This document shows, one piece after another, positions 1,960-17,296 of a stretch of 64,000 bases of DNA (position 1 is its first letter; every line of letters starts with the position of its first letter). Below the pieces are notes generated by a model that searched no databases, was not told where the DNA came from, and saw only the letters and a program-made list of their open reading frames with translations. Source of the stretch: Bacteroidales bacterium (GTDB lineage Bacteria; Bacteroidota; Bacteroidia; Bacteroidales; UBA4417); assembly GCA_030654075.1 (NCBI GenBank), contig JAURYB010000172.1:3285-67284 (forward strand), written 5' to 3'. The translations under genes were made by a program, and so were the position numbers.

Positions 1960-3462
1960 CTAATATAACTCTTTGTGGCATTCCGAACAGAACTTAGTTT
2001 TCCACTTCTCTTTTATCTGGGTTGGATGTTCAAACGGAAGTGTCGAGTTAATATATGCATTGGAAATATTTCCGGTAGGACCTTGTGCAATAATAGTGTG
2101 ACAGGTTTCGCAATTTCTTGAAATGGTTTCCCCTTTTGCCGTCTTATGCCTGTCGGAGTGGCATCGGAAACAACCTTCCGATTCCAAATGCCCAATGTGA
2201 TTGGGGTATTGACTTGCATCAGCCCTCATATAGGGAAATGCATTCAGGTTGTATTCTGCCTGGACAGCTGCAATCGCCTTCATAATACGTTGTTCCTCCG
2301 ATTTCATCACTTCCGGATGTTCGTCCTTGTAGTATTTAATAATGGTTTCGCTTATCTCACGCATGGCAATCTCTTTATCCTGAAAAGGTAGTTTTAATGC
2401 CTCCATGGCTGCTTCCTTGAAATAAGGCAGATTTTTTGAAATCAGGCCTGTAACGAACGCATTATCAAGATAATCGGGCGCGGATTTAAAGAGATGGGAT
2501 GCGCGGTTGTGACAATCCATGCAATCCATTGTGCGTACCTCCAGTTTATCAAGTGTTTTCTTGTCAAGTGAATTTTCTTCATCCTCGAAAATCTTGACTT
2601 CTCCGGTTTTAAGGTTTGTAAGCTTTACCCATGGTATGCTCTCCCGGTTGCGTGTATCGGAAATATACTCAATCCGGAAATTTTTATTGATATGCCAGTG
2701 TATACCTTCCGAATTACCCATTGATTTGAATTCCGGGCCTATTTTCATGACAAGGGACAGGTTCCATTCGGTGTTGGCTGAATCAGCAAGGTATGAACGT
2801 TGCACACGCAGTTTCCTGGAATAAAATTTTTCGGGCCAGTGGCATCGTTCGCAGGTTTCGCGTTCCGGCCGCATGCTTTGAATAGGAGTGGGGACAGGCC
2901 TTGGGTATTTTTTGAAAAGGGTAGAGTATACCTGGTATAGTCCCGACAGTTTTGATTTAACATACCAGTCGGCACCTTGCCCAACATGACATTCAACACA
3001 GGTAACCCTGGCATGCGACGAATGCTGATACGTTACGTACTCCGGTTCTTCCACCTGGTGACAAAGCTTACCGCAGAACTCATTTGATTCGGTATACTGA
3101 TAAGCCCTGTAACTTCCCATAGCTGAAGCAACAAGGAAAAGTGTGGTGATCAGGAAAATTTTAACCAAGGTTGCCCGATCCATTCTTTGGTTAAGATCGA
3201 ATACCGGCCAGGATTCGTTACGTAGCTGCGCCGCTTTTCTTTTACGGATATTAATAACAACTCCAACCGGAATCAGAATTAATCCCAAAACTAAAAATGC
3301 CGGTAATACGATATAAATGTAGAGTCCCAGGGAAGTGCTGGTTTGTGTTGAAATAACCGAATAAAGATAAAGCACCAGGATTAAAATCAAGCTATTGGCT
3401 GTAACAATAAAGCCCGTTAGGCTTAGCCAGTTGTAAAATGCTTTGATATTTTTATCAGCCAC
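1960..3462 (-). CDS. membrane-anchored multihaem cytochrome c, NapC/NirT-like, ImcH-like architecture (7 haem motifs)
   Basis: 500 aa, GTG start. Two N-terminal hydrophobic helices. Six CxxCH motifs (CVECH, CERCH, CMDCH, CFRCH, CETCH, CSECH) plus CGKLCH (CX3CH) in the NapC-like position just after the membrane anchor. Confidence 0.8.
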   Translation of the reverse strand: MADKNIKAFYNWLSLTGFIVTANSLILILVLYLYSVISTQTSTSLGLYIYIVLPAFLVLGLILIPVGVVINIRKRKAAQLRNESWPVFDLNQRMDRATLVKIFLITTLFLVASAMGSYRAYQYTESNEFCGKLCHQVEEPEYVTYQHSSHARVTCVECHVGQGADWYVKSKLSGLYQVYSTLFKKYPRPVPTPIQSMRPERETCERCHWPEKFYSRKLRVQRSYLADSANTEWNLSLVMKIGPEFKSMGNSEGIHWHINKNFRIEYISDTRNRESIPWVKLTNLKTGEVKIFEDEENSLDKKTLDKLEVRTMDCMDCHNRASHLFKSAPDYLDNAFVTGLISKNLPYFKEAAMEALKLPFQDKEIAMREISETIIKYYKDEHPEVMKSEEQRIMKAIAAVQAEYNLNAFPYMRADASQYPNHIGHLESEGCFRCHSDRHKTAKGETISRNCETCHTIIAQGPTGNISNAYINSTLPFEHPTQIKEKWKTKFCSECHKELY

Positions 3463-3529
3463 CTGGATTCCGGTTATTATGTATTGGTAAAGATATATTT
3501 AATATTCTAAATATATGGATACCTGCAAA

Positions 3530-3845: not shown

Positions 3846-3905
3846 AAAAAGAAAAATCAAACTTGAACGAAGGAGATAAGCAGTATAATTAATAATTAAA
3901 CCCAG

Positions 3906-3945
3906 GAAAAAGCAAAAGCCACTTTTGGGGGAAGTGGCTTTTGCT
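3906..3945 (-). terminator. rho-independent terminator after the 5-gene cytochrome operon
   Basis: 14-bp perfect stem AGCAAAAGCCACTT / AAGTGGCTTTTGCT (3911-3924 / 3932-3945), 7-nt loop. On the minus strand it is followed by a T-rich tract (GCTTTTGCTTTTTCC). Confidence 0.7.
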
Positions 3946-4005
3946 TAAAAATATGTTTTTTAACAAGCTCAAATCTATGTTAAGCAAGGAAAAATTAGTC
4001 TATGC

Positions 4006-4908
4006 TTATGCTTTATTGCTTTCTTCAGGAGGTATTTTTGAAGATTTATTGATCATAACCAATTGTACCACTGCATACACATAATGTCCCCAAACACCCA
4101 GAAGCATTACGATAAGTGTTATAATCATCCAGAGTGGCGCAATGGGCGTCCACAATTCCCGCGAAGGACGATCCGGACTAATCAGGTGTTTATGCAATCC
4201 CCAGTTTTTATCAGATGAGCCTTGAACCGTGCCGAAAATATCATTTTCCTCAATAGAGGCAACAACAGTCAGATTTCCGGTTGAATCACCAATAATGTCG
4301 CGGGGAAATTCAGCTGTACCAATACCGGTTGAATCAAGAGATATTTCAGCAATTTTAAGCATGCTGAACATTTTCGGGACTGATATAATTACATCAACCG
4401 CTCCGATTGATACTTCAGTGCCATCGCTGTTAAGCTGAGTTCCTTCAACTTTCACATACCTGATGGAGTCTTCTTCATAAAATGAAACTACCAGTTTTGC
4501 CGGTTTAAGGCCAAATTCACCTTCTGAAGCTTCGTATTTGTCATTGCCATCATACATCGCTTTAAATGAAAGCATCTGCTGATCGTTGCGAAGGAATGTG
4601 TTACGTGCCGGGATTTTGAGAACCGCAGTTCCATGAACATCAGTTTTTACCTCGCCAATCTTCAGATCTCCATCTTTCTCAACAGAGTAAAAAATAACCG
4701 GCGCATTTACCAGGTTAGTACTTCCATCGTCGTGTTTAACACTAACAACACTTTTTAACTGTATGCTGTCGTCAGAAGTACTGACACAGGCAAATCTTAA
4801 TACTGTGACAGCCGGGCTGGTGGTATCAGCATTATTCCGGGCAAATCCCTGCATCATTCCTGCCAGGAATAAGATGACAAGTATGATTCCTGTTTTTATC
4901 CTTTTCAT
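4006..4908 (-). CDS. signal-peptide protein with beta-rich (Ig-like?) ectodomain and C-terminal TM anchor; last gene of the cytochrome operon
   Basis: 300 aa. N-terminal signal (GIILVILFLAGMMQGFA), long beta-strand-like body, C-terminal helix LWMIITLIVMLLGVWGHYVYAVVQLVMI. 47 bp downstream of the NrfD-like gene, same strand. Confidence 0.55.
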   Translation of the reverse strand: MKRIKTGIILVILFLAGMMQGFARNNADTTSPAVTVLRFACVSTSDDSIQLKSVVSVKHDDGSTNLVNAPVIFYSVEKDGDLKIGEVKTDVHGTAVLKIPARNTFLRNDQQMLSFKAMYDGNDKYEASEGEFGLKPAKLVVSFYEEDSIRYVKVEGTQLNSDGTEVSIGAVDVIISVPKMFSMLKIAEISLDSTGIGTAEFPRDIIGDSTGNLTVVASIEENDIFGTVQGSSDKNWGLHKHLISPDRPSRELWTPIAPLWMIITLIVMLLGVWGHYVYAVVQLVMINKSSKIPPEESNKA

Positions 4909-4955
4909 AAAAAAATCTTTTTGTCCTGTTTACTAATTAACTTATTGTAAATCTG

Positions 4956-6281
4956 TTACCTCAGATAAATGTCACCCGCTTCTTTAGGTTCCTCCTTAAG
5001 ATCAGAAACCTGAACAATGGGTATCATTTTTGAAGCCAGGGTGAAAAGCAGACAGAAGAGTGCAACACCACCTGCTGTAAGCGACCATTCAACCCATGTG
5101 GCTGAATAATGTGCCCATGCATCACGTGACTCCTGGATAGGAAGATAAGGTGATTCGAGTGTTGGCACTACAATAAGGTAGCGGTTCAGCCATAACGCAA
5201 TAATAACAATGAATGCTGCTATGGTAATGTTATTGATTGTGCGCAGTTTCTTAAAACCCACAACAATCAACGGAACCAGAACACCGATGTAATTGGAAAG
5301 GATAAACAAAGAGTAATAATCCTTGAACAGGATGGCTATAAGTTGTTCGTCATTTTTTTCAGAACCATACCATTTTGTGAGGTATTCGCTGAAGGTAAAG
5401 TAACCAAAGAAGGCAGCAAGTACCAGCATGATAACTCCAACATTCACGAAGTGTTTTAATGTAATATGTTCTTCCAGATGGTACACTTTTCGGAAAAAAT
5501 ACATAGCCACAATAAGTACGCCGGTACCGGAATATACAGCAGCAATAACGAAATACGGGCCGAAGATGGTGCTATGCCAGCCTGGCTGTAAGGTTACACT
5601 GAAAATCCATGCGAGTACGGAGTATACTATAATTGCAATGGCAATAACCATTCCTGCCATAATATCCGTTGATTTTTTCAACCGTAATTGCTGTTCGGGT
5701 GTTCCTGTATAACCAATGGCAAGAATTTTGTACATTTTTTTCTTCCAATTCGGAACTTTCAGTTCGTCAAAATCGCGGAGTTTAGCCAAATCGCGTAAAA
5801 GTGCCAGGTACAGGAAAAGTATACATCCGAATATATCGGTTGATATAGCAATAACGTCCCAGGTAATTGGCGACTGAATACGCCCGAAGAGAATAAGATT
5901 CGGAAGACGGTCGAGGCGGCCGATACACATCATGATAAAGCCCGGGCCTATTAAAAGTGAGATTATGGTGATAAACTCAGCCATACGGATTATAGGTTTC
6001 CTCCATTCAGCATGAAAAAGATGCAGTGCTCCCGAAATAAGTGCTCCCGCGTAACTGATACCCATAAAAAAGATGAAGTTCACGATGTAAACACCCCATA
6101 CAACGTTGTCGCGCATACCGGTAACAATATGCCCGCGCGAAACCTGCCAGTAAAGGGCGAAAAAACCTAACAGAACAACACCAACAAGAAATGTTATCCA
6201 CAGTTTACCCAGTGTTCCGGTGTGCTCAATCTGAGGCGCAAATTCCCGGAGTAAAATTTTCGAACTAGCCGTATCGCTCAT
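4956..6281 (-). CDS. NrfD/PsrC-family polytopic membrane quinone-interacting subunit
   Basis: 441 aa with about 10 hydrophobic helices. The ATG overlaps the stop of the upstream ferredoxin gene (TAATG). Gene order FeS-NrfD is typical of NrfCD/PsrBC/Hmc modules. Confidence 0.8.
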   Translation of the reverse strand: MSDTASSKILLREFAPQIEHTGTLGKLWITFLVGVVLLGFFALYWQVSRGHIVTGMRDNVVWGVYIVNFIFFMGISYAGALISGALHLFHAEWRKPIIRMAEFITIISLLIGPGFIMMCIGRLDRLPNLILFGRIQSPITWDVIAISTDIFGCILFLYLALLRDLAKLRDFDELKVPNWKKKMYKILAIGYTGTPEQQLRLKKSTDIMAGMVIAIAIIVYSVLAWIFSVTLQPGWHSTIFGPYFVIAAVYSGTGVLIVAMYFFRKVYHLEEHITLKHFVNVGVIMLVLAAFFGYFTFSEYLTKWYGSEKNDEQLIAILFKDYYSLFILSNYIGVLVPLIVVGFKKLRTINNITIAAFIVIIALWLNRYLIVVPTLESPYLPIQESRDAWAHYSATWVEWSLTAGGVALFCLLFTLASKMIPIVQVSDLKEEPKEAGDIYLR

Positions 6282-7243
6282 TACAGGGTCTCCTTATTTT
6301 TAAGATTTTTTACATAGGGGGTATTTTCAAATCTCTTGGTAACTTCCTCATCCAGGCCATCAAGTCCGCGTTCGAACGGGAATTGCCTGTCGACAGGTGG
6401 GAGATAATATACATTCGGACGGGTTCCAAGGTTATCAAGGTATTTGTAGCCGGAACGGTCGCGGATCAGTTCACTGAATTTAAAAGTTTCGGTTCCGTTG
6501 GTTACAACATCTTCGTCAATGTCGCCAAAATAGATAACTCCCATCGGGCAAGCGGATGCACAATACGGTAGCTTCCCTTCGCGGGCGAGGTCAGGACAGA
6601 AATCGCATTTGGAAACCGTTCCTTCAACACCCGGAACACTTTTCTCAGGTGAATAAGGCTGATCCGACTCATAAGCTTCTTCTGCTTTCCATGAAAATAC
6701 ACGTGTTGAATACGGGCAGCCTGTCATACAGAACTTACAACCGATACAGCGTTCGTTATCAATAAGCACAATACCATCGCTGCGCTTGTAGGTTGCACCA
6801 ACAGGACAAACACTCACACACTGGGGGTTATCGCAATGGTAGCATGGTTTTGGAAACCAGTAAGGTGCCGTTTTCTCTGAATCCTGCATAAGGTAAACTT
6901 TCATAAACTCCTGGTCTTTAGGAAGGTTATGTCCTTTTTGGCATTCCTCAACACACTTACGGGCATTTTTACATTTAGCCAGGTCAATTACCATAACAAA
7001 CTTACGGCCAGGAATACCTTCGTGGGATTCAACGCGGCCAACCGGCGCAAGTGTGAGGAAATTTTTATCTACTTCCATCACTTCACCTGAAGTGGTAAGT
7101 ACTTTGATCTTTTCACCTGATTCGCCGGAATTTTTACCAGTTGCTATCAAAGCTCCTGTTGCAACAGTACCGGCACCAGCCAACAAACCCAGTTTCAGGA
7201 AATTTCTCCGCGAGTTGTTGTCATCTTTCTTTTTATTTTCCAT
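6281..7243 (-). CDS. Tat-exported 4Fe-4S multi-cluster ferredoxin (NrfC/HybA/DmsB-like)
   Basis: 320 aa. Twin-arginine signal SRRNFLKLGLLAGAG. Cys clusters CKNARKCVEEC, CYHCDNPQCVSVCP, CIGCKFCMTGCP, CDFC...CASACP. Confidence 0.85.
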   Translation of the reverse strand: MENKKKDDNNSRRNFLKLGLLAGAGTVATGALIATGKNSGESGEKIKVLTTSGEVMEVDKNFLTLAPVGRVESHEGIPGRKFVMVIDLAKCKNARKCVEECQKGHNLPKDQEFMKVYLMQDSEKTAPYWFPKPCYHCDNPQCVSVCPVGATYKRSDGIVLIDNERCIGCKFCMTGCPYSTRVFSWKAEEAYESDQPYSPEKSVPGVEGTVSKCDFCPDLAREGKLPYCASACPMGVIYFGDIDEDVVTNGTETFKFSELIRDRSGYKYLDNLGTRPNVYYLPPVDRQFPFERGLDGLDEEVTKRFENTPYVKNLKNKETL

Positions 7244-7322
7244 GGTAAGCCATTTTAATGTTAAGTGATGAGGAAGTTTCGATCAATTCCGAACAGTAAG
7301 CTTTTCAGCTACCTGTCAGATT

Positions 7323-7940
7323 TCAGTGTGATTCGTGAAAGCCATTGATCATGCTCTTAAAATTACTTACAAAAGTTGCTCCTATGGTGCAGAAATATAT
7401 GTGAACAAACATAAAAAAGGATACAAAAAAACCAATAATGACATGGATAAAGTCATTGACTTTTATTCCGCTACCACTAAAAAATTTGGTTAAAACCACT
7501 TCGGGGTACAATAAAGCCCATCCGGTAATTATAACAATAGGCACAAGCACAAACATGGCAATTACATAGGTAAACTGTTGTAAAGGATTGAATTTGCTTT
7601 CTTTTGTAACAGGGAACGGAGGTCTTTCGTGTTTGAAAATACCAAATGTATAATACGTAAACTGTTTTATCAGCCTGGCAAATAAGCCTTTAAATGATAA
7701 TTTGTAATATTTTCCGTTAGGAGTGATAAAAGTTCCGATCAGAAATATCATATAATTAGCTGTGAGTATCATTCCGCTGATATTATGCATGGTAACAGCA
7801 ATATCGAACCTGATAAACGGGTTAGCCGGATTTGTATATTGCATACTTACACCGCTGATGATCAGGAGGATGATAAGAATGGCATTTAAGGCATGCCAGA
7901 GCCTGATCCACATGGGATATAGATATATTTTTTGTGACAT
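7323..7940 (-). CDS. dihaem b-type cytochrome membrane subunit (HydC/FdnI/PhsC-like, Ni_hydr_CYTB type)
   Basis: 205 aa, 4 TM helices with conserved His (WHALN, MHNISG, IHVIIG, VHIYF). The ATG overlaps the stop of the upstream haem-c gene (TAATG). Confidence 0.7.
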   Translation of the reverse strand: MSQKIYLYPMWIRLWHALNAILIILLIISGVSMQYTNPANPFIRFDIAVTMHNISGMILTANYMIFLIGTFITPNGKYYKLSFKGLFARLIKQFTYYTFGIFKHERPPFPVTKESKFNPLQQFTYVIAMFVLVPIVIITGWALLYPEVVLTKFFSGSGIKVNDFIHVIIGFFVSFFMFVHIYFCTIGATFVSNFKSMINGFHESH

Positions 7941-8923
7941 TATTTCTTACGTTTTATAATTCTGAGTGTTGCATGAATTGCTATACCAAATGCTACGCAT
8001 CCGAACATGATTAAACTTATCAATCCAAGGTAATAATTACGGTTGGCACCAATAACATATCCTTCGTTCATGATAACTCCGTTATAAAATCCGGCTTTGC
8101 TGCGTTCTTCCTGCACTTTGTATTTGTAAAGTGAAGCCATAAGGATTGAGTTGGTTGAATGACACTCAACGCACCTTCTTACTGCTTTTGCTTTTGGCTG
8201 AATATTATGTGCTACCAGGATTGAATCGTTGGTTCGCGCATGGCACTCGATACAACGGACATTTTTGAAATGCAGCGCCTGGTTAGGCAACCAGTCATGT
8301 TTTTGGAGGATATTGGGATTCACTTTATCCGTGAGCATCTGGTACTTGGTAATATCGGCGTGGCAATTCAGACAAATAGCGTTATCGTAAGCTACAATAT
8401 CTCTGATTTTTTCGTCCGAACGGGCGTTGATTTTATAGGTATGCGGATTATGACACATCCAGCAGTTAAAATCATCGCTGTGCTTTGTTGAATGCACACT
8501 CGACTGGAATTCAGTTTCAATATCTTCAAATTTAAATTTGGCATATGCTTCATCTCCGCCATGGCAGTCGATACAGGCATATTTCGATTCCATCCGCAAG
8601 CGTCCCGGGTGTGGGAAAGTATCATAGTCGGCAGAATGGCAATCTGTACATTTAAATGTTTTATGGTTTGATTCGTAAAATTCGGTACGGTTAATAATGG
8701 TTTCGAGGTACATTCTCTTGGTTACTTCGGTACCTGATTCCGGATTATTATATTTATACTTGGATTGCCCGTGACATTTCAGGCAATCTTCGTTGATTTT
8801 AATTGTTTCATCTTTGGGTTTGTTTTGGGCTTTTAATGTAATCGACATCATCGAAAAAAAGAAGAATGTCAAAATAAAAGCAACAGGAACTTTCCGGAAA
8901 TATGGAGTGAAAAGTGAAGTCAT
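7940..8923 (-). CDS. heptahaem cytochrome c with C-terminal membrane anchor
   Basis: 327 aa. Signal peptide. Seven CxxCH motifs (CLKCH, CTDCH, CIDCH, CWMCH, CLNCH, CIECH, CVECH). C-terminal helix LGLISLIMFGCVAFGIAIHATL. Confidence 0.85.
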   Translation of the reverse strand: MTSLFTPYFRKVPVAFILTFFFFSMMSITLKAQNKPKDETIKINEDCLKCHGQSKYKYNNPESGTEVTKRMYLETIINRTEFYESNHKTFKCTDCHSADYDTFPHPGRLRMESKYACIDCHGGDEAYAKFKFEDIETEFQSSVHSTKHSDDFNCWMCHNPHTYKINARSDEKIRDIVAYDNAICLNCHADITKYQMLTDKVNPNILQKHDWLPNQALHFKNVRCIECHARTNDSILVAHNIQPKAKAVRRCVECHSTNSILMASLYKYKVQEERSKAGFYNGVIMNEGYVIGANRNYYLGLISLIMFGCVAFGIAIHATLRIIKRKK

Positions 8924-8961
8924 TTTTTTTGAAAAAATTAGTAGAACAGGAATTTTTGAGG

Positions 8962-9005
8962 CAAAAAAAATAAAGGGTGTTCTGATTTTATCCTGAACAC
9001 CCTTT
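8962..9005 (-). terminator. rho-independent terminator after the cytochrome c gene
   Basis: Stem AAAGGGTGTTC / GAACACCCTTT (8972-8982 / 8995-9005). On the minus strand it is followed by ATTTTTTTTGCC. Confidence 0.8.
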
Positions 9006-9019
9006 ATCTGGCAAACAAA

Positions 9020-9436
9020 TTACTTTTTCATAGTACGGATATAGCCAATAACAGCCCATCTGTCAGCAACGTCTAAAATTTTCTTTTCGAAGTTAGGCAT
9101 TTCGTCGCGGCCGATAAATGACATGTAATAAAGTTCTCCATCAGTTTTAGCCTGGAATGCTGCTTTTGAAAAATCACCTGTTAAGGTTTTGAGGTTCGCG
9201 GCTTTTGGGCCATCACCTAGACCTTTTGCTCCATGGCATGATTTGCAATGCTTGTTGAAGTTTTCTTTTCCAATCGTGTTGATTGATGCGTCACCAGCTT
9301 TTACAGTACTTTTCATGTTTTTGTAAGTTGCCGGGATTGTCCAGGGACCGCCAGCTTTTTGTGCTATAGCCATATTGGCTGTTACAAAAGCAATAGCGGT
9401 GCAAATAATTGCGATAAGTTTAATTGAATTTCTCAT
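9020..9436 (-). CDS. class I monohaem cytochrome c (periplasmic)
   Basis: 139 aa from ATG 9436. Signal peptide MRNSIKLIAIICTAIAFVTANMAIAQ, single CKSCHG, distal Met region DEMPNF. The track ORF start at 9517 would overlap the upstream gene and adds a non-signal N-terminus. Confidence 0.8.
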   Translation of the reverse strand: MRNSIKLIAIICTAIAFVTANMAIAQKAGGPWTIPATYKNMKSTVKAGDASINTIGKENFNKHCKSCHGAKGLGDGPKAANLKTLTGDFSKAAFQAKTDGELYYMSFIGRDEMPNFEKKILDVADRWAVIGYIRTMKK

Positions 9437-9504
9437 TTTGTTTATTTTATTAGTTATATCTGTTTTGGTGCAAAAATTATTCCAAATAAGGGGGGGTGTA
9501 GCAT

Positions 9505-10443
9505 TTAGAAATTCCACAGACGGGTCAGATTGAATCCAATCATAATGCCTTTATTGAAAAAATCATGATTATTCCACATAATATCTTCCTGAGGCAGAAT
9601 TCCCTGTGCTGATGCTAAATAGATCTGAAATGCATGGGTGCTTGTTGATATCTCGACACCAATAGAGATGTTAGGCTTATCATAAATGATAGTTGTTTTA
9701 TCAGAGTCTTTCTTGTAATCTTTAATTGCTGAGATATCCAAAGGGAAATCACCGGCAACAATCAAAGAACCTTGCGGTGAGAATTTATACCTTCCTGCAA
9801 ATGACAAGGAAACTCTGTCGTGATCATAAACTGAATCAACGCAGTTGTAATGTGTGAATGCTCCACTAGCTTGTAACGATAGGTGATCATTAAACCTGCG
9901 CGATACTATCAACTCGGTAAAGGATGATATTCTGTTCGAAAATTTATAGCCGGCTGATCCTTCATTCTGATCCCAGGTAGCTTTGTCTCTACCATCAACC
10001 CCTATAACTTCGTGCAAAACTATAGTTACAGGAATGCTGTTTGAACGGGTTTGTTCAATAATTCTGTACTTAAGCTGTAAATCCTGTAATCTATTTATTT
10101 TAGTGGTTCCAACCCCTACAGTAAGATTGTCAAGAATACTGTAATTTAAACCTACTCGGATGTTAGAGGATCCCCAGATTCCAAAAAAGTCTTTAGCGCC
10201 ATCCGTATATCCAAACCGATGCTGAAGAATGAATTCCAGCGTTTTTGCTGGTGAAACGGTTGTGGTTGTTGCATCAAACAATAATCCGCTTTCGAAAGCG
10301 GGACGTACCGGACGTTCTTTCGGTGTTTCCTGAACAGTAGTATCCTGAGTGGCTTCTTCCTGTGCAAAGGTGGTTGAATTAAATATCAGCAATGTTAAGA
10401 CCATCAAAGCGCTGAAGCGGAGTATCTTATATATGTTTTTCAT
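9505..10443 (-). CDS. predicted outer-membrane beta-barrel protein (DUF5777-like from memory), paralog of 15243-16157
   Basis: 312 aa. Signal peptide ending FAQ, alternating amphipathic strands, C-terminal GFNLTRLWNF ending in Phe. Clear similarity to the 304-aa ORF (LEFILQHRFG/LQFLVEHNFG, IRVGLNY/VRLGLEY, HAFQIYL/HVFQFRL). Confidence 0.6.
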   Translation of the reverse strand: MKNIYKILRFSALMVLTLLIFNSTTFAQEEATQDTTVQETPKERPVRPAFESGLLFDATTTTVSPAKTLEFILQHRFGYTDGAKDFFGIWGSSNIRVGLNYSILDNLTVGVGTTKINRLQDLQLKYRIIEQTRSNSIPVTIVLHEVIGVDGRDKATWDQNEGSAGYKFSNRISSFTELIVSRRFNDHLSLQASGAFTHYNCVDSVYDHDRVSLSFAGRYKFSPQGSLIVAGDFPLDISAIKDYKKDSDKTTIIYDKPNISIGVEISTSTHAFQIYLASAQGILPQEDIMWNNHDFFNKGIMIGFNLTRLWNF

Positions 10444-10473
10444 ATTTTATGTATTTTCTGATTATAAATGAGC

Positions 10474-10851
10474 TTAGTCGTTTTTTGCGCCTGCAGTGAT
10501 CCACCGGAAAATAAGAAGTAATCTATCCGATGAAGTATAGGGTGCCATGCTGCCGCCAGGTTTGCATTTAGTATATAGCGAACTGGTTTCAGGACTTTCT
10601 GCTACTACATAGTTACCTGTCATAAGAGCATTGTATGAATTACCTGTAGTAAGCAAAGGTTTTTGACTATTTGAATGGCAACTAATGCACTTTGCGTCAA
10701 AAATTGGTTGAATGTCTGACAAGAAACTGATAGTGTCGTTCTCAATTACTGGTGGTGGGGGAGTTGGTACAATATAATCATATTCGCAGGCTGTCAGCAG
10801 GGTGATCAATGTGCCTGACAGGAATAATAATCTGAGAAATCTCTTTTTCAT
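10474..10851 (-). CDS. small haem-c lipoprotein, PSCyt1 (Planctomycete cytochrome C)-like
   Basis: 125 aa. Lipobox LLTAC, single CISCH, C-terminal ...MAPYTSSDRLLLIFRWITAGA resembling the PSCyt1 'MPP...L..e....i..WI..GA' tail. Paralogous to 13857 and 14357. Confidence 0.65.
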   Translation of the reverse strand: MKKRFLRLLFLSGTLITLLTACEYDYIVPTPPPPVIENDTISFLSDIQPIFDAKCISCHSNSQKPLLTTGNSYNALMTGNYVVAESPETSSLYTKCKPGGSMAPYTSSDRLLLIFRWITAGAKND

Positions 10852-11001
10852 TGGTTAATTATTTGTTGGTTGTTTTAGATTTTGAGACAGGCTTTTTGTT
10901 ATAAATTTAACAAAGCTACTGTGGTTATTTGATTCGTACAAAGGAATACTTTTATCCTGAAATAGTGCATTAATTAAATATGATTGTTTGACACTATTAT
11001 T

Positions 11002-11045
11002 TTGATACTTATCAACCGATATATTGATATATGTCATTATCTTTG
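11002..11045 (+). promoter_or_regulatory. perfect FNR box TTGATACTTATCAA plus -7 box TATCTTTG upstream of the Crp/Fnr gene
   Basis: TTGAT-N4-ATCAA at 11002-11015. TAnnTTTG-type -7 box at 11038-11045. Palindrome centre lies 29.5 bp before the box, the same spacing as at 13718-13762. Confidence 0.6.
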
Positions 11046-11129
11046 TACGCGAATTGAAGGGTAAAGATTCTACTGTTAAAACCAGATTGGATACTATATT
11101 TTCCTTCATTTAATATAAAAATTAGATCT

Positions 11130-11828
11130 GTGAATCAATATACTCAATATATAAAAGGATGCAGTTCATGCAAAGACAAAGCTGAAATATTCAGTTGTTT
11201 GTGCCAGACCGAGCTAGACCAGATTGATGAAAAACGTATTGAAGTGCATTTTAAAGCGGGTGAACTTATCTTTAAGCAAGGTACTCCCAATATGCATTTC
11301 CTGTGTTTAACCCAAGGTAAAGTTAAAACGTATATTGAAGGCTATAACGATAAAAATCTTATCCTGGGTATTGTTAAACCTGTCGAATATATTCTTGGAC
11401 CTGGAATTTATGCTGACCAGATGCATCACTTTTCGGCTATGGCTATCGAGGATTCAGTCGCATGCCTTGTTGACCTGGTTACGTTTAAGTCTCTCATCCG
11501 GAATAATCCTGATTTTGCGGAAGATTTTCTAAAAAAAATCAGCCTGCAATCAATTTATAATTACGAACTTTTCATCAGCCTTACACAAAAGCAAATGCCA
11601 GGGCGAATTGCCGATGTATTGCTTTACCTGAAAGACAAAGTTTACGAATCCAATCCATTCCGTACTTCGCTTTCGAGGCAGGATTTAGCTGATATGTCGG
11701 GTATGTCGAAGGAAAGTGCCATTCGTATCCTAAGGGAGTTTAAAGACGAAGGTATTATTCAGGTGAATGGCAACGATTTCGAGATATTAGATACTGAACA
11801 TCTTAGTAAGATCAGTCAAACAGGATAG
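11130..11828 (+). CDS. Crp/Fnr-family transcription regulator with N-terminal Cys cluster (FNR-like)
   Basis: 232 aa, GTG start. cNMP-binding-type beta-roll, C-terminal HTH (SRQDLADMSGMSKESAIRILREF). N-terminal C11-x2-C14-x8-C23-x-C25 (GCSSCKDKAEIFSCLC). Confidence 0.85.
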   Translation: MNQYTQYIKGCSSCKDKAEIFSCLCQTELDQIDEKRIEVHFKAGELIFKQGTPNMHFLCLTQGKVKTYIEGYNDKNLILGIVKPVEYILGPGIYADQMHHFSAMAIEDSVACLVDLVTFKSLIRNNPDFAEDFLKKISLQSIYNYELFISLTQKQMPGRIADVLLYLKDKVYESNPFRTSLSRQDLADMSGMSKESAIRILREFKDEGIIQVNGNDFEILDTEHLSKISQTG

Positions 11829-11858
11829 AATCATTTCCAGTTTCAATGTTTAAAAAAT

Positions 11859-11888
11859 AGCCCGGGTACTGCGCCAAGTGCCCGGGCT
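11859..11888. terminator. bidirectional hairpin terminator between convergent genes
   Basis: Stem AGCCCGGGTAC / GTGCCCGGGCT (one G-T pair), 8-nt loop. T-rich on the plus side (TTAATGTTTT) and on the minus side (ATTTTTTA). Confidence 0.55.
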
Positions 11889-11910
11889 TAATGTTTTAAA
11901 ATGTATACTA

Positions 11911-11977
11911 CTTATCACTTATCACTTATCACTTACACCTTATCACTTACACCTTATACCTTACACCTTATCACTTT
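11911..11977. repeat. period-7 degenerate tandem array (CTTAYMM, about 9.5 units)
   Basis: cttatca cttatca cttatca cttacac cttatca cttacac cttatac cttacac cttatca ctt. Overlaps the stop codon of the S41 peptidase gene. Confidence 0.85.
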
Positions 11978-13581
11978 CCCTGTGATAATTTCTGGAACAA
12001 GGAGTCATTCTTAATTACATCTATAGCCTGATTCAATTCATCGTCTGTAGTGCTGATCATTTGGAAATAAGCATTCATATTAAATAAATTCCTGGCAATA
12101 AGTGCTTTTAGAACTGTTTTTATTTGTAGCCCTGATGCCTCCAGATCCTTATCGTTGCGAGGTAAATCTTTCGATTCAGCAAAAGCTACAAATTCATCCA
12201 GCAATTTCTGGTCATCGGTAAATCCTTTTTTAAATGCTTGTATATCAGGATACGTTTTGAGAAGGTCTTTGCGCCTGGTCTCAATATATTGCACTGTAAA
12301 TTCGTTCAGCAGCGATTTGCGAAAAACATCAGTGTAATATTTCGAAGCAAATGCAGTATCCATAGGAATAAAGTAGTCGGGCATAATTCCACCACCTCCG
12401 TAAACAACACGTTTATTCTGGGTAAAATACCTCAGTGAATCAGGGAATTTAATACTATCGGCATGGTACATTTCACCATGTTTTAATCGTTTGTAAAGGT
12501 CATCACCATATTCTTCTTCACCATCAGCATATGATTTTTGGATACAACGGCCCGAGGGAGTATAATAACGTGCTGTTGTAATACGAACCATTGAGCTATC
12601 GGGAAGCATGTAAGGCCGCTGAACCAGGCCTTTCCCAAATGACCGCCTTCCGATAATCAGGCCACGATCCCAATCCTGCACAGCGCCTGAAACAATTTCA
12701 GAAGCTGACGCTGAACCTTCATCAATCAGGACTACCAGTTTGCCTGTTTCGAATGTACCGCTAGAGGTGGCAATAAAATCCTGTTTAGGGCTACGTACAC
12801 CTTTAGTATATACTACAAGTTTACCAGCAGGTAAAAATTGGTCGGCCAGATCAAAAGCTATATTCAGATAACCACCTGAATTTCCCCGAAGATCGAAGAT
12901 AAGGTTTTTCATCCCCTGCTTTTTTAAAGCATTGGCAGCGTCAATAAATTCGTCTGTTGAAGTGGCTGCAAAACGCGAAAGTTTTATATATCCTATATTA
13001 GTGGTAACCATATAGGAAGCATCTATACTGTTAAGTGGAATTTTGTCCCGTGTTATGGTATAGTCAATCAGTTCTTTATGCCCTTTGCGGTAAATGGCAA
13101 CATCTACTTTGGTCCCTCTTGGACCACGCAGGTGGTCGAGTACGAATTGGGTAGTCAGTTTTTTGCCAAAAGCATCTTCACGGTTGATCTTGATGATTTT
13201 ATCTCCAGCCAGAATACCTAATTTATCGGAAGGCCCGCCTGGAACAGGCGAAATAACTAATATTGTATCCTTATAAATCTGAAACTGAATACCAACGCCA
13301 TCAAAGTTTCCGACCAATGGCTCATTGGTTTTTTCAACTTCATCTTTTGAAATATAAACGGAATGCGGATCAAGTTCTTTCAGTACCGCTACAATTGCTT
13401 CTTCAGTTAACTTTGGCTGATCAACATCTTCGACATAGTAATAGTTTATTAACTGCATCAGTGTGTTGAACTTCATTGTGGTTGACTTAGGATCAACCGA
13501 CTTTTGTTTTGTTTGAGCTGAGGAGCTTATGATTATGATGAGAAGAAAGAATACTATCAGGGAATATTTAGCTAATTTCAT
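11971..13581 (-). CDS. S41-family C-terminal processing (tail-specific) peptidase
   Basis: 536 aa. Signal peptide, PDZ-like segment (GGPSDKLGILAGDKIIKIN), S41 catalytic region (VLIDEGSASASEIVSGA...RRSFGKGLVQ). Confidence 0.85.
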   Translation of the reverse strand: MKLAKYSLIVFFLLIIIISSSAQTKQKSVDPKSTTMKFNTLMQLINYYYVEDVDQPKLTEEAIVAVLKELDPHSVYISKDEVEKTNEPLVGNFDGVGIQFQIYKDTILVISPVPGGPSDKLGILAGDKIIKINREDAFGKKLTTQFVLDHLRGPRGTKVDVAIYRKGHKELIDYTITRDKIPLNSIDASYMVTTNIGYIKLSRFAATSTDEFIDAANALKKQGMKNLIFDLRGNSGGYLNIAFDLADQFLPAGKLVVYTKGVRSPKQDFIATSSGTFETGKLVVLIDEGSASASEIVSGAVQDWDRGLIIGRRSFGKGLVQRPYMLPDSSMVRITTARYYTPSGRCIQKSYADGEEEYGDDLYKRLKHGEMYHADSIKFPDSLRYFTQNKRVVYGGGGIMPDYFIPMDTAFASKYYTDVFRKSLLNEFTVQYIETRRKDLLKTYPDIQAFKKGFTDDQKLLDEFVAFAESKDLPRNDKDLEASGLQIKTVLKALIARNLFNMNAYFQMISTTDDELNQAIDVIKNDSLFQKLSQGK

Positions 13582-13717
13582 AAATTCCTAAGGGATTAAA
13601 ATTGAATTTCAAAATTACATGATTTATCGCATAAATTGTGGCAATTGTTTGCCATTCGTTATGCATTTAACAATTTTTCTCATTTCATATCGTTTATAAT
13701 GAATATAAATAGATAGC

Positions 13718-13762
13718 TGTGATATAAATCACAAAATGGAGCTTAAAAAGCGCGTAAATTTG
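13718..13762 (+). promoter_or_regulatory. perfect CRP/FNR-type palindrome TGTGATATAAATCACA plus -7 box TAAATTTG upstream of the second cytochrome/barrel operon
   Basis: 16-bp palindrome at 13718-13733 (core TGAT-N4-ATCA). TAnnTTTG box at 13755-13762. Centre-to-box spacing 29.5 bp, giving roughly -42 relative to a TSS a few nt after the box. Confidence 0.6.
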
Positions 13763-13856
13763 CATTAGGTTGAAAATGCCTCAATTGGAGTTAAGAAAGG
13801 CCTTAAATACCTGTAAACTATTTTCACAGGAAATCTTCCTTTTAATTTTTTTATAA

Positions 13857-14240
13857 ATGAAAACACGAATAATTAGTGCATTGGCCGGATTGATACTTTT
13901 AAGCATTTATCTAACTTCCTGCAAGCATGAACCGGAACTCCCGCCAGGCACACCCATAGTTTGTTTCGACCAGGATGTTATGGGCATTATTAATTCGAAT
14001 TGCAATGTACCCGGTTGCCACGGTGATGGTGAAGGGCCTTCTCTATCTACTTTCGAAGATGTTTCCAGCTATGTCACCGCAGGCAAACCAATGCAAAGCG
14101 AGCTTCATAAAGTAATTACGGCACACTCGAACCTGGAGGGGTTAATGCCTCCCAAACCAAAATCAGCACTTTCCAGTTCACAGATTGATATTATAAGCAT
14201 CTGGATATTGCAAGGCGCGACTCATACCACCTGTCCCTAA
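13857..14240 (+). CDS. small PSCyt1-like lipoprotein with CX4CH motif
   Basis: 127 aa. Lipobox YLTSC, motif NCNVPGCHG (C-x4-CH), tail LMPPKPKSALSSSQIDIISIWILQGA matching the PSCyt1-type ending. Confidence 0.65.
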   Translation: MKTRIISALAGLILLSIYLTSCKHEPELPPGTPIVCFDQDVMGIINSNCNVPGCHGDGEGPSLSTFEDVSSYVTAGKPMQSELHKVITAHSNLEGLMPPKPKSALSSSQIDIISIWILQGATHTTCP

Positions 14241-14356
14241 ACTCATTGCGATGGTTTTCAAGCGGGATCTACTGTTCCATATACAAATATTTAACAGTAT
14301 TTTGAACAATTGATATATAAATGTATTTTAATAGAATGCTAATCAAAAAATCTTCA

Positions 14357-14743
14357 ATGAAAACAAAAATAAAAGTATTCCTTGCATCTGTATTGGCACT
14401 TACACTTGCGATCAGCGGTTGTTATTATGACAATGAAGAAGACTTATACCTGGGAAGCAGCGCCTGTGATACAACAAATGTAACCTACCTCAATACTACT
14501 TCAGGTGAATTAGCTATTGAGAAAATTTTTGAACATAATTGTAATTCATGCCATAGTGGAAGTACTCCATCCGGGAATATTAAGACTGACAATTATGAGG
14601 CTGTAAAAGCCAATATTATCCGGATCAGAGGAGCAATTAACCACCAATCAGGCTTTCAGGCAATGCCTCAAGGTGGCAGCCTGTCATCCTGCGACCTGAC
14701 GAAAATTGATATCTGGATCAGAAAAGGGATGCTGAACAATTAA
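14357..14743 (+). CDS. small haem-c lipoprotein, PSCyt1-like
   Basis: 128 aa from ATG 14357 (MKTKIKVFLASVLALTLAISGC lipobox). CNSCH motif, tail AMPQGGSLSSCDLTKIDIWIRKG. The track start at 14321 adds 12 non-signal residues. Confidence 0.65.
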   Translation: MKTKIKVFLASVLALTLAISGCYYDNEEDLYLGSSACDTTNVTYLNTTSGELAIEKIFEHNCNSCHSGSTPSGNIKTDNYEAVKANIIRIRGAINHQSGFQAMPQGGSLSSCDLTKIDIWIRKGMLNN

Positions 14744-14766
14744 CCATTTAGATAAAATTAAAGGGT

Positions 14767-15204
14767 ATGAATAAAAAACTTAAAATCGGGCTTATAATAC
14801 TGGCAATCGGACTTGTAGCTGCAGCCCTTGTTTGGAAATTTTATGTAAACAAACCTCATGATGATATAGAAAAAGCAACCGCGGCTTATTCTGTTTCGAC
14901 CGAAGAAATTTGGAATAAGTACAATACCGACCGGAGAACAGCCGATTCGTTGTACAATGACCAGGTGATTGAAGTTACCGGCAGCCTGAGCCGTATCGAT
15001 AAAAATGACACATTGGTATCGGCCATATTTGTAATGGCGGCTGACTCAATGTTTGGTGATAAAACCATTGCCTGTCAGATGTATAAAAAGCACAATGAAG
15101 AAGCGGGCACATTAGTGGTTGGCTCAAAAGTTAAAATTAAGGGTGTTTGTATCGGATTTGATGATACCGATATTAAATTTAATAAATGTTCAATAGTCAA
15201 ATAG
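14767..15204 (+). CDS. N-terminally anchored OB-fold protein (tRNA_anti-like family, from memory)
   Basis: 145 aa. TM helix IGLIILAIGLVAAALVW, then a pattern typical of Bacteroidota tRNA_anti-like/OB proteins (YNDQVIEVTGSL...GSKVKIKGVCIG). Confidence 0.5.
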   Translation: MNKKLKIGLIILAIGLVAAALVWKFYVNKPHDDIEKATAAYSVSTEEIWNKYNTDRRTADSLYNDQVIEVTGSLSRIDKNDTLVSAIFVMAADSMFGDKTIACQMYKKHNEEAGTLVVGSKVKIKGVCIGFDDTDIKFNKCSIVK

Positions 15205-15242
15205 TTACTTTGTTTTTCAGGTTAAAGGATAAATAAAACAGT

Positions 15243-16157
15243 ATGATACGAAATAAAATACTTGCAATCTTCCTGTTTCTCATGGTCTTCAGCGGTCAAT
15301 TATTTGCGCAGGATCTGATGGACATGTTAAAGGATGAGACTCCTAAAACGAATTATGCTTACGCTACTTTTAAAACAACCCGTGTTGTTTTGGGGCAATC
15401 GGTTGAAAGCCCTGCTAAAGGTACCCTTCAGTTTTTGGTTGAGCACAACTTTGGCAAACTGAACGAAGGAGCATATGCGATGTGGGGATTGGATCAATCC
15501 ACAGTAAGGCTGGGATTGGAATATGGGATTAAAGATTGGTTGAGTGTCAGTATTGGCAGAAGTTCCTATCAAAAGACATTTGATGGATCGGTTAAAATTA
15601 AATTACTCAGGCAGAGTACAGGTGCCCGGAAAATGCCGTTTTCCATGTCATTATATGGAGGCACCATGTTAAATTCATTAAAATGGACAGATCAAACCCG
15701 CAATAATTACTACACTTCGCGCTTGTCTTATCTGGCACAAGTACTGATCGCAAGAAAGTTCTCGAATGCTTTTTCTGTACAATTAACACCTACTTATATT
15801 CATAAAAACCTGGTCCCACTGAGGACCGATCGCAACGATCAATTATCAATTGGCATTGGGGGAAGGTACAAAGTTTCACAGCGCACCAGTTTAAATGCAG
15901 AGTATTTTTACCAGATTCCCGGATTTATTAATTCCGATCCGGTTTCAGGTTCTGAATACCGTAATTGCTTATCAGTAGGAGTTGATCTTGAAACCGGCGG
16001 CCATGTATTCCAGTTCCGGCTTACCAACGCGCAGCCAATGTTTGAACGTGCTTTCATTACTGAAACAACCAGCAAGTGGACGGATGGAGGTATTTTCCTT
16101 GGTTTTACAATAAATCGTGTATTTACTATTATTAAGCCGTCCGTTCCGAAAGAATAG
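15243..16157 (+). CDS. predicted outer-membrane beta-barrel protein (DUF5777-like), paralog of 9505-10443
   Basis: 304 aa. Signal peptide ending FAQ, amphipathic strand pattern, barrel-closing GFTINRVF near the C-terminus. Alignable along its length with the 312-aa ORF. Confidence 0.6.
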   Translation: MIRNKILAIFLFLMVFSGQLFAQDLMDMLKDETPKTNYAYATFKTTRVVLGQSVESPAKGTLQFLVEHNFGKLNEGAYAMWGLDQSTVRLGLEYGIKDWLSVSIGRSSYQKTFDGSVKIKLLRQSTGARKMPFSMSLYGGTMLNSLKWTDQTRNNYYTSRLSYLAQVLIARKFSNAFSVQLTPTYIHKNLVPLRTDRNDQLSIGIGGRYKVSQRTSLNAEYFYQIPGFINSDPVSGSEYRNCLSVGVDLETGGHVFQFRLTNAQPMFERAFITETTSKWTDGGIFLGFTINRVFTIIKPSVPKE

Positions 16158-16165
16158 TTATTCCT

Positions 16166-16244
16166 GAAAATCACCAATCAGAAATCACAAATCAAAACTC
16201 ACTATTATTTATTCGTGATTTTTGAATCTGGATTGGTGATTTTT
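16166..16244 (+). terminator. long imperfect hairpin after the barrel gene (possible terminator)
   Basis: Left arm AAAATCACCAATC... (16167-) pairs with ...GATTGGTGATTTT (16231-16243), 13 bp perfect plus imperfect extension, followed by TTTTGATTG. Confidence 0.45.
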
Positions 16245-16331
16245 GATTGAAAAATCAGAATTTCTTAATCTCCAATCAGCAATTACATCTCAGTGTAAAA
16301 AGCACTACTTTCGTAAGGCAATTAATGTTGT

Positions 16332-17063
16332 ATGGATAAGGAAGAAAAGCACAGATTTTTTAGCAGTATGATATTCCCGGGGCTTTTAGTCCTGGTACTT
16401 TGGATTATTAAAGTCATTGAAGTCGGTTTCCAGGTATCTTTTGCAGATTTTGGACTTTTACCGCAATCTCTTGTCGGGCTGCGGGGCATACTTTTTTCGC
16501 CCTTGCTGCATGCTGATTGGGCACATCTCTCGTCGAATTCAGTTCCTTTGTTTTTGTTATCTTCAGGTTTGTTTTATTACTATGGTAAAAAAGCAATGAC
16601 AATACTTATACTTTGTTGGCTGGTAACTGGACTTTGGGTATGGATTTTTGCAGCAGACACAGGCATTCATATAGGAGCTTCAGGTGTTGTTTATGCGCTT
16701 GCAACATTTCATTTCACGGGAGGGATATTACGCCGTGAACCCCGCATGATGGCATTTTCATTATTAGTTGTATTTCTGTATGGAAGCCTGGTTTGGGGTA
16801 TATCACCTAAATTTTTCCCGGACAAAAATATTTCATGGCAATCGCATCTATTAGGCGGTCTGGCCGGGATAGTAATCGCTTTTGCATACAGGCTTGAAGG
16901 TCCTCAGCAGAAAATTTACCAGTGGGATGATGATGAAGATGAGATTGAATATATTGAAGATGAAAGTATCACAGAAGAAGAACAACGAAAGGTTGATGAA
17001 GCTGTTAAAGGCATATTGGAGAAAAGTGAGATTGCTGAGAAATCTTTTGATCAACAAATATGA
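16332..17063 (+). CDS. rhomboid-family intramembrane serine protease
   Basis: 243 aa, about 6 TM. Catalytic GASGVVYAL (GxSG) and HLLGGLAG His motif, WAHLSSN. Acidic C-terminal tail (DDDEDEIEYIEDE). Confidence 0.85.
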   Translation: MDKEEKHRFFSSMIFPGLLVLVLWIIKVIEVGFQVSFADFGLLPQSLVGLRGILFSPLLHADWAHLSSNSVPLFLLSSGLFYYYGKKAMTILILCWLVTGLWVWIFAADTGIHIGASGVVYALATFHFTGGILRREPRMMAFSLLVVFLYGSLVWGISPKFFPDKNISWQSHLLGGLAGIVIAFAYRLEGPQQKIYQWDDDEDEIEYIEDESITEEEQRKVDEAVKGILEKSEIAEKSFDQQI

Positions 17064-17296
17064 AATTATTGTAATGTTTTAACTGCTGGTTCTATTCGTA
17101 AGTACCTGTCTGTAAATGCAAACTAAATATTTGGTATCAGATAATTTCAATGTAAAAAGCATTTTTAAAGTTTATTAAAAACCAGTCGGCTTTAACTTTG
17201 TTGATTAGAGCAGATAAAAGTTCAGAATCCCAGAATCGTATTCGCTCTTAATATTGGCAACTAAAAAACTAAGCACTTCAACTTTGCGAAGTTCAA

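Follow-up and report, generated by a model that had tools for sequence, protein, structure and literature searches.

How electrons are moved beyond the inner membrane in Bacteroidota, a phylum abundant in sediments, anoxic waters, sludge and guts, is to our knowledge essentially unknown. The question is raised by a 64-kilobase (kb) stretch of contig JAURYB010000172.1 from a Bacteroidales bacterium (hereafter the window, that is, the whole of the DNA analysed), in which genes for small haem lipoproteins resembling the PSCyt1 domain adjoin genes for outer-membrane beta-barrels of the family DUF5777: what might such a pair be for? Two copies of the pair adjoin each other in the window, module 1 on the minus strand and module 2 on the plus strand; the pair occurs throughout the phylum, apparently without a literature of its own, and in the window it heads an operon composed of electron carriers only, behind an FNR-type operator. 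The reading to which we incline, with a confidence that falls a little short of even, is that the pair forms the outer-membrane end-station of an envelope electron-transfer chain and, as such, a redox module conserved across Bacteroidota; what suggests an end-station is that electron carriers aimed at the outer membrane are common to all the contexts in which the pair is found.

The open reading frames (ORFs) of the window were checked for position and then scanned with Pfam and NCBIfam; in what follows, A1, A2 and A3 denote the lipoproteins, B1 and B2 the barrels, C1 a soluble cytochrome c and D a protein with an oligonucleotide/oligosaccharide-binding (OB) fold. All seven of these ORFs had been listed in a first-pass annotation of the DNA and all were recovered where it had placed them, with two starts corrected: judged by homologues and signal peptide, A3 most likely begins at 14357 (MKTKIK...) and not at 14321, and C1 most likely at 9436 (MRNSIKL...) and not at 9517. 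Read-through from A1 to B1 is interrupted by three stop codons.

The evidence that carries the pairing comes from a scan of one genome per species, covering 59 loci and 610 kb. A PSCyt1-like lipoprotein gene lies at most 1.2 kb upstream, on the same strand, of all 60 barrels for which the upstream DNA is informative, and each of the 94 PSCyt1-like ORFs in these 610 kb adjoins a barrel. Nine further contexts were reached via distant representatives, among them Brumimicrobium glaciale (Flavobacteriales), a metagenome-assembled genome (MAG) of Lewinellaceae, Chryseosolibacter and assorted metagenomes; PSCyt1-like genes stand beside the barrel in eight of the nine, and these distant cassettes usually also hold the OB-fold protein and a YceI lipocalin. 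The DUF5777 family comprises 2272 clusters at 50% identity, and every source name returned by the look-up belongs to Bacteroidota. In some loci the lipoprotein and barrel genes overlap, suggesting translational coupling. In the window itself, the hidden Markov model (HMM) of the lipoprotein family found no PSCyt1-like ORF besides A1, A2 and A3, and all three adjoin a barrel gene, so that the arrangement is not due to chance. The functional coupling of haem lipoprotein and barrel, put forward in the first-pass annotation, is strongly supported by the unbroken adjacency in the 60 informative loci together with the distant contexts.

Two arrangements of the pair can be distinguished. In type 1, represented by module 1, the order is lipoprotein, barrel and soluble class I cytochrome c, the last following the barrel in 16 related loci; in type 2, represented by module 2, a CX4CH lipoprotein (or a di-domain protein) is followed by a CXXCH lipoprotein, an anchored OB-fold protein and the barrel, the OB-fold gene standing between lipoprotein and barrel in 35 loci and also in the distant cassettes. 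It had been supposed that a single pairing was duplicated and kept in one locus; two paralogous modules do cluster here, but they belong to anciently diverged types which in several MAGs occupy separate contigs (for instance, one MAG has L021 and L051 and a second has L014 and L052) and which are therefore kept independently. A recent tandem duplication was considered and rejected, the barrels sharing 28% and the lipoproteins 26-31% identity, and each type having its own orthologues in many genomes. By sequence comparison, modules 1 and 2 are two old, separately conserved paralogous subtypes. The first-pass annotation knew of no experimental description of such a pair, and none was found in the literature searched: DUF5777 is mentioned in none of the papers found, PSCyt1 only in passing, and searches on tRNA_anti-like and choice-of-anchor domains returned nothing relevant. 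The families DUF5777, PSCyt1-like and PF12869 are already catalogued, and systems made of an outer-membrane cytochrome and a barrel are a known kind; no account seems to exist of the pairing itself, of its two subtypes, of its conservation throughout the phylum, of its operators or of its link to ImcH-like and CbcL-like modules.

As had been noticed at first sight, the three lipoproteins are distantly paralogous to one another (26-31% pairwise identity by BLASTP, with E values from 1e-5 to 2e-6), and each combines a lipobox cysteine, one haem motif and a C-terminal M(A/P)...W-I..G tail. The lipobox pattern [LVI][ASTG][GAS]C is found in all of them (LTAC in A1, LTSC in A2, ISGC in A3), its cysteine being invariant in the family alignment; indeed, among 19 diverse members, the only invariant residues are this cysteine, the two cysteines and the histidine of the haem motif (C55, C58 and H59), and the tryptophan and glycine of the C-terminal helix. 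The methionine of the MP motif is replaced by histidine in three members (L039, L044 and L059), a swap that is expected of a genuine distal (sixth) haem ligand. The spacing of the haem motif varies across the family, which includes CX2CH, CX4CH and CX1CH forms. A full-length match to cytochrome c6 was obtained with the family profile (E=7.6e-6), in which the positions of CH and MP coincide; other matches of the profile are the iron oxidase FoxE (E=3e-5) and the alpha subunit of hydrazine synthase (E=3e-4). The AlphaFold2 (AF2) model of A1, with a mean predicted local distance difference test (pLDDT) of 81.9, follows the class I order, that is, a helix before the motif (residues 43-54), CXXCH, two short helices (73-78 and 91-96), the methionine loop and a C-terminal helix (108-119); Foldseek gave it a single significant neighbour, namely 5c2v, the haem domain of hydrazine synthase alpha (probability 0.99, 24% identity), and residues 39-72 of A1 match positions 666-699 of the hydrazine synthase alpha model of NCBIfam. 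By motif and predicted fold, A1, A2 and A3 are thus class I-type c cytochromes of the PSCyt1 kind, and we infer that their haem is covalently bound.

The name PSCyt1-like, chosen in the first-pass annotation, is kept here: close relatives carry PF07635 matches, but against the PF07635 (PSCyt1) cutoff of 22 bits A2 scores 16.0 bits, and A1 and A3 give no match at E of 1 or below, so that by the curated cutoff the window proteins are not counted as members of the family. They are likewise only distant relatives of NF047812 (LIC11213 family lipoprotein), whose cutoff of 100 bits compares with 43.8 bits for A1, 23.6 for A3 and 16.7 for A2. The relatives retrieved with the family profile (n=2515) are mostly tandem proteins of 220-250 residues with precomputed PF07635 matches, and in their consensus a CX4CH domain precedes a CXXCH domain; A2 and A3 therefore correspond to domains 1 and 2, respectively, of a split di-domain protein.

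The assignment of both barrels to DUF5777 proved well founded, B1 scoring 221.8 bits and B2 313.5 bits against a Pfam cutoff of 23.1 for PF19089, with model positions 1-247 of 247 covered; the two align end to end, as claimed, with 28% identity over 304 residues (E=2e-30), and neither contains a CXXCH motif. The barrel topology presumed from the sequence is also that of the AF2 model of B2, which was built on an alignment of 142 sequences (pLDDT 94.9; predicted template-modelling score 0.87) and consists of 12 antiparallel strands with short and long connections in alternation; hydrophobic and polar residues alternate along the strands. With this model, Foldseek returned only generic outer-membrane barrels of 12 to 14 strands (NanC, FapF, OmpG, the barrels of EstA and invasin, and COG4313), at template-modelling (TM) scores of ~0.5 and ~10% identity, and a profile search of PDB sequences found no solved homologue for the barrel and none for D. 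Going by the model, the fold class of the barrel is clear, and it is one without a characterised homologue.

Conservation extends to the 30 residues ahead of strand 1 (F43 is present in 99% of sequences, and T42, K44, R47, S53 and E55 are conserved too), which are modelled with confidence, and the strand positions assigned to the lumen are conserved charged or polar residues (R89, D114, K118, Q124, Q166, K172, R208, K210, E220, D248 and E250), the distinction between lumenal and lipid-facing positions resting on strand parity, an indirect substitute for coordinates. Taken together, the conserved N-terminal segment and the charged lumen suggest that the barrel is self-plugged or narrow, filled by its own N-terminal segment. 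Three histidines of B2, of which H68 and H254 are invariant and H187 is near-invariant, lie near strand ends and are lipid-facing by parity, not lumenal. That the lipoprotein plugs the barrel, a question raised in the first-pass annotation, is unlikely on grounds of size, with 12 strands around a charged lumen that is probably already filled by an N-terminal segment modelled with high confidence; the lipoprotein tether may thread it.

These features bear on a first alternative, namely that the barrel is a substrate channel which passes a small redox-active solute, such as Fe(II), a chelated metal or a sulfur species, across the outer membrane, to be oxidised or reduced by the cytochromes at its periplasmic mouth, in the manner of FoxE. 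Indeed, the nearest folds are small substrate channels (NanC, OmpG and COG4313), the lumen is polar and charged, the lipoprotein profile matches FoxE, class I cytochromes with His/Met ligation suit high-potential couples, and the operon is without a catalytic subunit. We nonetheless hold a channel to be distinctly unlikely, since the conservation and confident modelling of the mature barrel's 30 N-terminal residues suggest a plugged lumen, the fusion and stalk variants described below point to a haem domain at the surface, and no transporter or metal-handling genes are conserved nearby.

Table 1. Genes and operators of the two modules and of the module 1 operon, with the evidence for each assignment.
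Feature	Position	Strand	Evidence
A1, type 1 PSCyt1-like monohaem lipoprotein, 125 residues; lipobox LTAC, CISCH, predicted distal Met in GSMAP	10474..10851	-	Paralogy, profile, AF2, Foldseek
B1, type 1 DUF5777 outer-membrane beta-barrel, 312 residues, signal peptide, C-terminus ...RLWNF	9505..10443	-	PF19089 E=1e-65
C1, soluble periplasmic class I cytochrome c, 138 residues from MRNSIKL, signal peptide, CKSCH	9020..9436	-	PF00034 E=3e-11
Seven-haem c-type cytochrome, C-terminal membrane anchor	7940..8923	-	Cytochrom_c3_2 and Cytochrome_C7 matches; seven CXXCH; kept in 14 loci
Membrane b-type cytochrome, HydC/PhsC type	7323..7940	-	PF01292 E=1e-23; PhsC-like E=3e-53
4Fe-4S protein exported by twin-arginine translocation, DsrO/NrfC-like	6281..7243	-	NF045797 DsrO E=2e-49; Fer4_11 and TAT_signal matches
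NrfD/DsrP-like integral membrane quinone-interacting subunit	4956..6281	-	PF03916 E=1e-32
300-residue protein, signal peptide and C-terminal transmembrane helix, without Pfam or NCBIfam match	4006..4908	-	Same operon position (after the NrfD-like gene) in 10 loci
ImcH-like cytochrome, 500 residues, three N-terminal transmembrane segments, seven haem motifs	1960..3462	-	PF03264 at residues 97-186; NrfH-like E=9e-17
Exact FNR-type palindrome TTGATACTTATCAA	11002..11015		151 nucleotides upstream of the A1 start codon
Crp/Fnr-family regulator, divergent from module 1, with N-terminal cysteines C11, C14, C23 and C25 in a cluster	11130..11828	+	HTH_Crp_2, cNMP_binding; NCBIfam Fnr-like
Exact CRP-type palindrome TGTGATATAAATCACA	13718..13733		139 nucleotides upstream of A2
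A2, type 2 lipoprotein, lipobox LTSC, CX4CH motif CNVPGCH	13857..14240	+	Paralogy; weak PF07635 and PF13442 matches
A3, type 2 lipoprotein, lipobox ISGC, CXXCH motif CNSCH, mature N-terminus CYYDNEEDLY	14357..14743	+	Paralogy, homologue alignment
D, membrane-anchored OB-fold protein, tRNA_anti-like	14767..15204	+	PF12869 E=9e-16
B2, type 2 DUF5777 barrel, 304 residues, 12 strands	15243..16157	+	PF19089 E=1e-93; AF2 model

The genes downstream of the type 1 pair (Table 1) are conserved alongside it across many loci. One of them encodes the 500-residue cytochrome, whose transmembrane-like segments start at residues 12, 41 and 96 and whose haem motifs are six CXXCH and one CX3CH (CGKLCH); its NapC/NirT similarity (PF03264) lies around the third segment and the first haem motifs, and the gene is linked to type 1 modules in 7 loci. 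The same layout (three N-terminal transmembrane helices, seven motifs for haem c, and NapC/NirT similarity around helix 3) has been published for ImcH, which together with CbcL is an inner-membrane quinol oxidase of extracellular electron transfer in Geobacter (PMC6295460). The window cytochrome corresponds to that architecture, a likeness set by the description and not by the sequence of the Geobacter protein, while the seven-haem protein and the HydC/PhsC-like cytochrome b resemble a split CbcL. Neither in the operon nor among 20 further large window ORFs scanned with Pfam (180 residues or more) was a catalytic reductase or oxidase found, the latter being housekeeping genes or without a match; three ORFs of 274-367 residues (25755-26858, 47046-47894 and 48024-48848) have no Pfam match at E of 1e-5 or below. 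Elsewhere in the window, on the minus strand, a fusion of a NifS-like class V aminotransferase with a SelD-like, AIR-synthase-related domain (33070-35274) lies beside a rhodanese-domain protein (35367-36413), and from their sequences the two may form a selenium or sulfur activation pair.

The TTGAT-N4-ATCAA box between A1 and the divergent gene for the Fnr-like regulator is the sole exact match in the window, where 0.33 would be expected by chance; the same box is present 99-151 nucleotides upstream of the type 1 lipoprotein gene in 9 other loci, a copy with one mismatch (3530-3543) precedes the ImcH-like gene by ~70 nucleotides, and a Crp/Fnr-family regulator gene adjoins type 1 modules in 21 loci. 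Judging from these operators, module 1 is probably switched on by an FNR-type regulator under low oxygen. Module 2 is preceded by a TGTGA-N6-TCACA box, again the only exact match in the window, and in 17 other loci a GTGA-N6-TCACA box precedes the first of the type 2 lipoprotein genes, mostly by 110-150 nucleotides (range 42-446). The window also encodes proteins of the kind found in oxygen-tolerant anaerobes, namely a flavodiiron-type protein (48881-50098) and a BatA aerotolerance protein (53373-55439), besides a translation (18512-19090) which, by eye and without a family scan, we take to resemble an Fe/Mn superoxide dismutase; the presence of these genes fits FNR-type control of module 1. 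Between the convergent genes for the Fnr-like regulator and an S41 peptidase, a hairpin with a strong 12-base-pair stem and T-rich flanks on both strands (11859-11888) is the sole convincing terminator in 1500-17500; a scan for promoters and terminators, which did not cover the promoter types of Bacteroidota, otherwise gave counts at chance level and no sign of operon limits.

Some clues to the cellular location of the haem domains come from unusual members of the families. One barrel (P0250, L065:959-2329) carries, fused to its N-terminus, a choice-of-anchor V/Reeler domain with a CTECH motif (98 bits against NF041895), and two PSCyt1-like genes are still present upstream of it; this is the one fusion seen in 150 family representatives, and its CXXCH domain is of another kind. 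Choice-of-anchor domains, as we understand the naming logic of NCBI, are otherwise attached to cell-surface anchoring signals. In another locus (L070:2169-5546), a lipoprotein of 1125 residues is composed of immunoglobulin (Ig)-like repeats and ends in a PSCyt1 domain; its neighbours are YceI, a PSCyt1 lipoprotein of small size and a DUF5777 barrel extended at the C-terminus. A stalk of this length is more in keeping with the cell surface than with the periplasm. The mature N-termini of the window lipoproteins are CEYDY in A1, CKHEPE in A2 and the strongly conserved CYYDNEEDLY in A3, and an acidic residue at position +4 after the lipid-modified cysteine is near-universal in the family, the canonical doublet at +4/+5 being absent; the lipoprotein export signal reported for Bacteroidota is acidic as well, a polar or positive residue standing ahead of two acidic ones at about +3 to +5, in the forms C-X-K-(D/E)2, SDDDD or SDFDE-like (PMC5080379). 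As far as these sequences go, surface exposure of the haem lipoproteins is plausible but unproven.

Alternatively, the barrel might mainly export or anchor its lipoprotein, in the way of Slam, of an autotransporter or of the complexes of RcsF with outer-membrane proteins; the cytochrome would then have a surface role of its own, such as that of a redox sensor or scavenger. The 12 strands and the internal N-terminal segment resemble the barrels of type V secretion, EstA and invasin being among the fold matches; the choice-of-anchor domain of P0250 is fused at the passenger position; and the partner gene is strictly adjacent, as are the genes of Slam substrates to Slam. The similarity of fold is however generic, at the scores given above, and an export role would leave unexplained why YceI, the OB-fold protein and the soluble cytochrome c are partners; moreover, a general pathway for the export of surface lipoproteins is already present in Bacteroidota (PMC5080379). 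An export function is, in our judgement, very unlikely.

If the pair is instead an end-station, one or two monohaem cytochromes of the PSCyt1 kind, lipid-tethered to the outer membrane, would have a dedicated partner in a 12-stranded DUF5777 barrel. In module 1, electrons would leave menaquinol via the ImcH-like, the split CbcL-like and the NrfCD-like inner-membrane modules, would be carried across the periplasm by the soluble class I cytochrome c and would end on A1 and B1 at the outer membrane; module 2 would represent the widespread stand-alone form of the end-station, with two cytochrome domains, an OB-fold protein anchored in the inner membrane and an operator of the CRP type. The barrel is expected to serve as a partner in docking, anchoring or surface exposure, or else to let a small redox-active solute through as a narrow conduit; since it is small and apparently self-filled, it is not expected to sheath a haem domain as in MtrAB or Cyc2. 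The location and orientation of the lipoproteins at the outer membrane, their contact with the barrel, the direction of the electrons and the final acceptor or donor are elements that we infer. It could also be proposed that the pair is a minimal electron conduit across the outer membrane, made of the 12-stranded barrel and one or two monohaem lipoproteins and operating, unlike MtrAB, Pcc and Cyc2, by means such as a tether that threads the barrel, a cofactor bound to its invariant histidines or a small molecule acting as a shuttle; this we consider unlikely.

Several observations weigh against an end-station. Twelve strands around a charged lumen cannot enclose a haem domain of 100 residues, and one haem on either face cannot bridge the membrane; nor was a terminal acceptor identified. 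The type 1 lipoproteins of six loci (L046:5609-5968, L050:5574-5945, and L055-L058 at about 5609-5975) have a CX1CH motif (GCTCH or GCGCH), and we know of no established haem c attachment site with a single residue between the cysteines. The acidic N-termini of the lipoproteins differ from the canonical export signal C-X-K-(D/E)2. Finally, many cassettes belong to aerobic heterotrophs, where YceI lipocalins and no respiratory genes accompany them, and in one exceptional locus of an abundant marine lineage of Flavobacteriales (L068:5469-6849; a cluster of 157 members), an FAD oxidoreductase comes after YceI and DUF5777, and the 6 kb around these genes hold no PSCyt1-like gene.

The last two points bring forward a further explanation, in which the system serves antioxidant defence or quinone handling in the envelope: a lipophilic carrier (menaquinol or another polyisoprenoid, bound by YceI where this is present) would be shuttled to the outer membrane and there oxidised or reduced by the cytochromes, quenching lipid radicals, while the barrel would act on, or present, outer-membrane lipids, in a scheme akin to that of BcnA and LcoA. 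The lipid-facing parity of His68, His254 and His187 near the strand ends would suit such a role, the outer-membrane lipid enzymes OMPLA, PagP and PagL having their active sites in comparable positions. YceI lies directly beside DUF5777 in 7 of the 9 distant cassettes and in L037, and in L068 YceI and the barrel occur together without PSCyt1. BcnA (a YceI protein) and LcoA (a cytochrome b561) have been reported to detoxify lipid peroxyl radicals, and YceI homologues bind ubiquinone-8 (PMC9113575). Yet a YceI HMM found no match in the window or in any locus of Bacteroidales or Lentimicrobiaceae; module 1 belongs to an operon with an FNR box and anaerobic-type quinol modules; its cytochrome b is of the HydC/PhsC type; and, given standard barrel topology, the three histidines are too far apart to form one site. 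We give this explanation a low probability.

The consequences differ according to which explanation holds. If the pair is the outer-membrane end of the chain, it would define an architecture new to outer-membrane electron transfer and provide a role for two domains of unknown function, DUF5777 and stand-alone PSCyt1, and metagenomic surveys would gain a marker gene pair. A true conduit would provide Bacteroidota with a phylum-wide route of extracellular electron transfer, FNR-controlled in anaerobes. If, on the other hand, the pair serves the redox upkeep of outer-membrane lipids or quinones, the lipocalin-cytochrome type of defence, proposed only recently, would be extended to a new phylum and would acquire an outer-membrane component.

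The relation of the pair to known systems can be outlined from the cytochrome outwards. With the PSCyt1 family (Planctomycete cytochrome C, PF07635) and the C-terminal haem domain of hydrazine synthase alpha the lipoproteins share the succession of helix, CXXCH, ...P..S.L..., MP and L..eei..i..WI..GA; in Planctomycetota, however, the PSCyt1 domain stands at the head of very large proteins made of several domains, PSCyt2 and PSD1 among them, whereas here it is a stand-alone lipoprotein of ~100 residues, or a tandem pair, tied to a barrel. Like BcnA and LcoA, the DUF5777 cassettes couple an envelope haem protein genetically to a YceI lipocalin, in this case in the distant cassettes and not in those of the window; unlike them, they include an outer-membrane barrel and c-type cytochromes. 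The obligate adjacency of barrel and lipoprotein genes in Bacteroidota, as well as the acidic residues after the lipid-modified cysteine, recall SusC/SusD, but there SusC is a 22-stranded TonB-dependent transporter and SusD a large glycan-binding lid, with no redox cofactor and no homology to the window pair.

Closer in kind are two systems of electron transfer. The Cyc2 barrel is usually modelled with about 16 strands, and in MtrCAB and Pcc a periplasmic cytochrome with many haems is sheathed by a barrel of at least 20 strands. Cyc2 combines a monohaem CXXCH unit with an outer-membrane barrel as the outermost electron-transfer element of iron oxidisers (bioRxiv 10.1101/228056). The combination of a monohaem CXXCH unit with a barrel is shared with the present pair, and P0250 even carries an N-terminal CXXCH domain fused to its barrel; in the window, by contrast, the two are encoded by separate genes, the cytochrome is a PSCyt1-type lipoprotein and the barrel has 12 strands and no CXXCH. 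No sequence link to Cyc2 turned up, although no direct comparison was made. From MtrAB and Pcc the window pair differs in its 12-stranded barrel, well short of the 20 or more strands of a wide barrel, and in its monohaem partners; with MtrCAB and Pcc it shares the adjacency of genes for a barrel and an outer-membrane lipoprotein cytochrome, downstream of quinol oxidases of the ImcH, CbcL or CymA type (PMC6295460).

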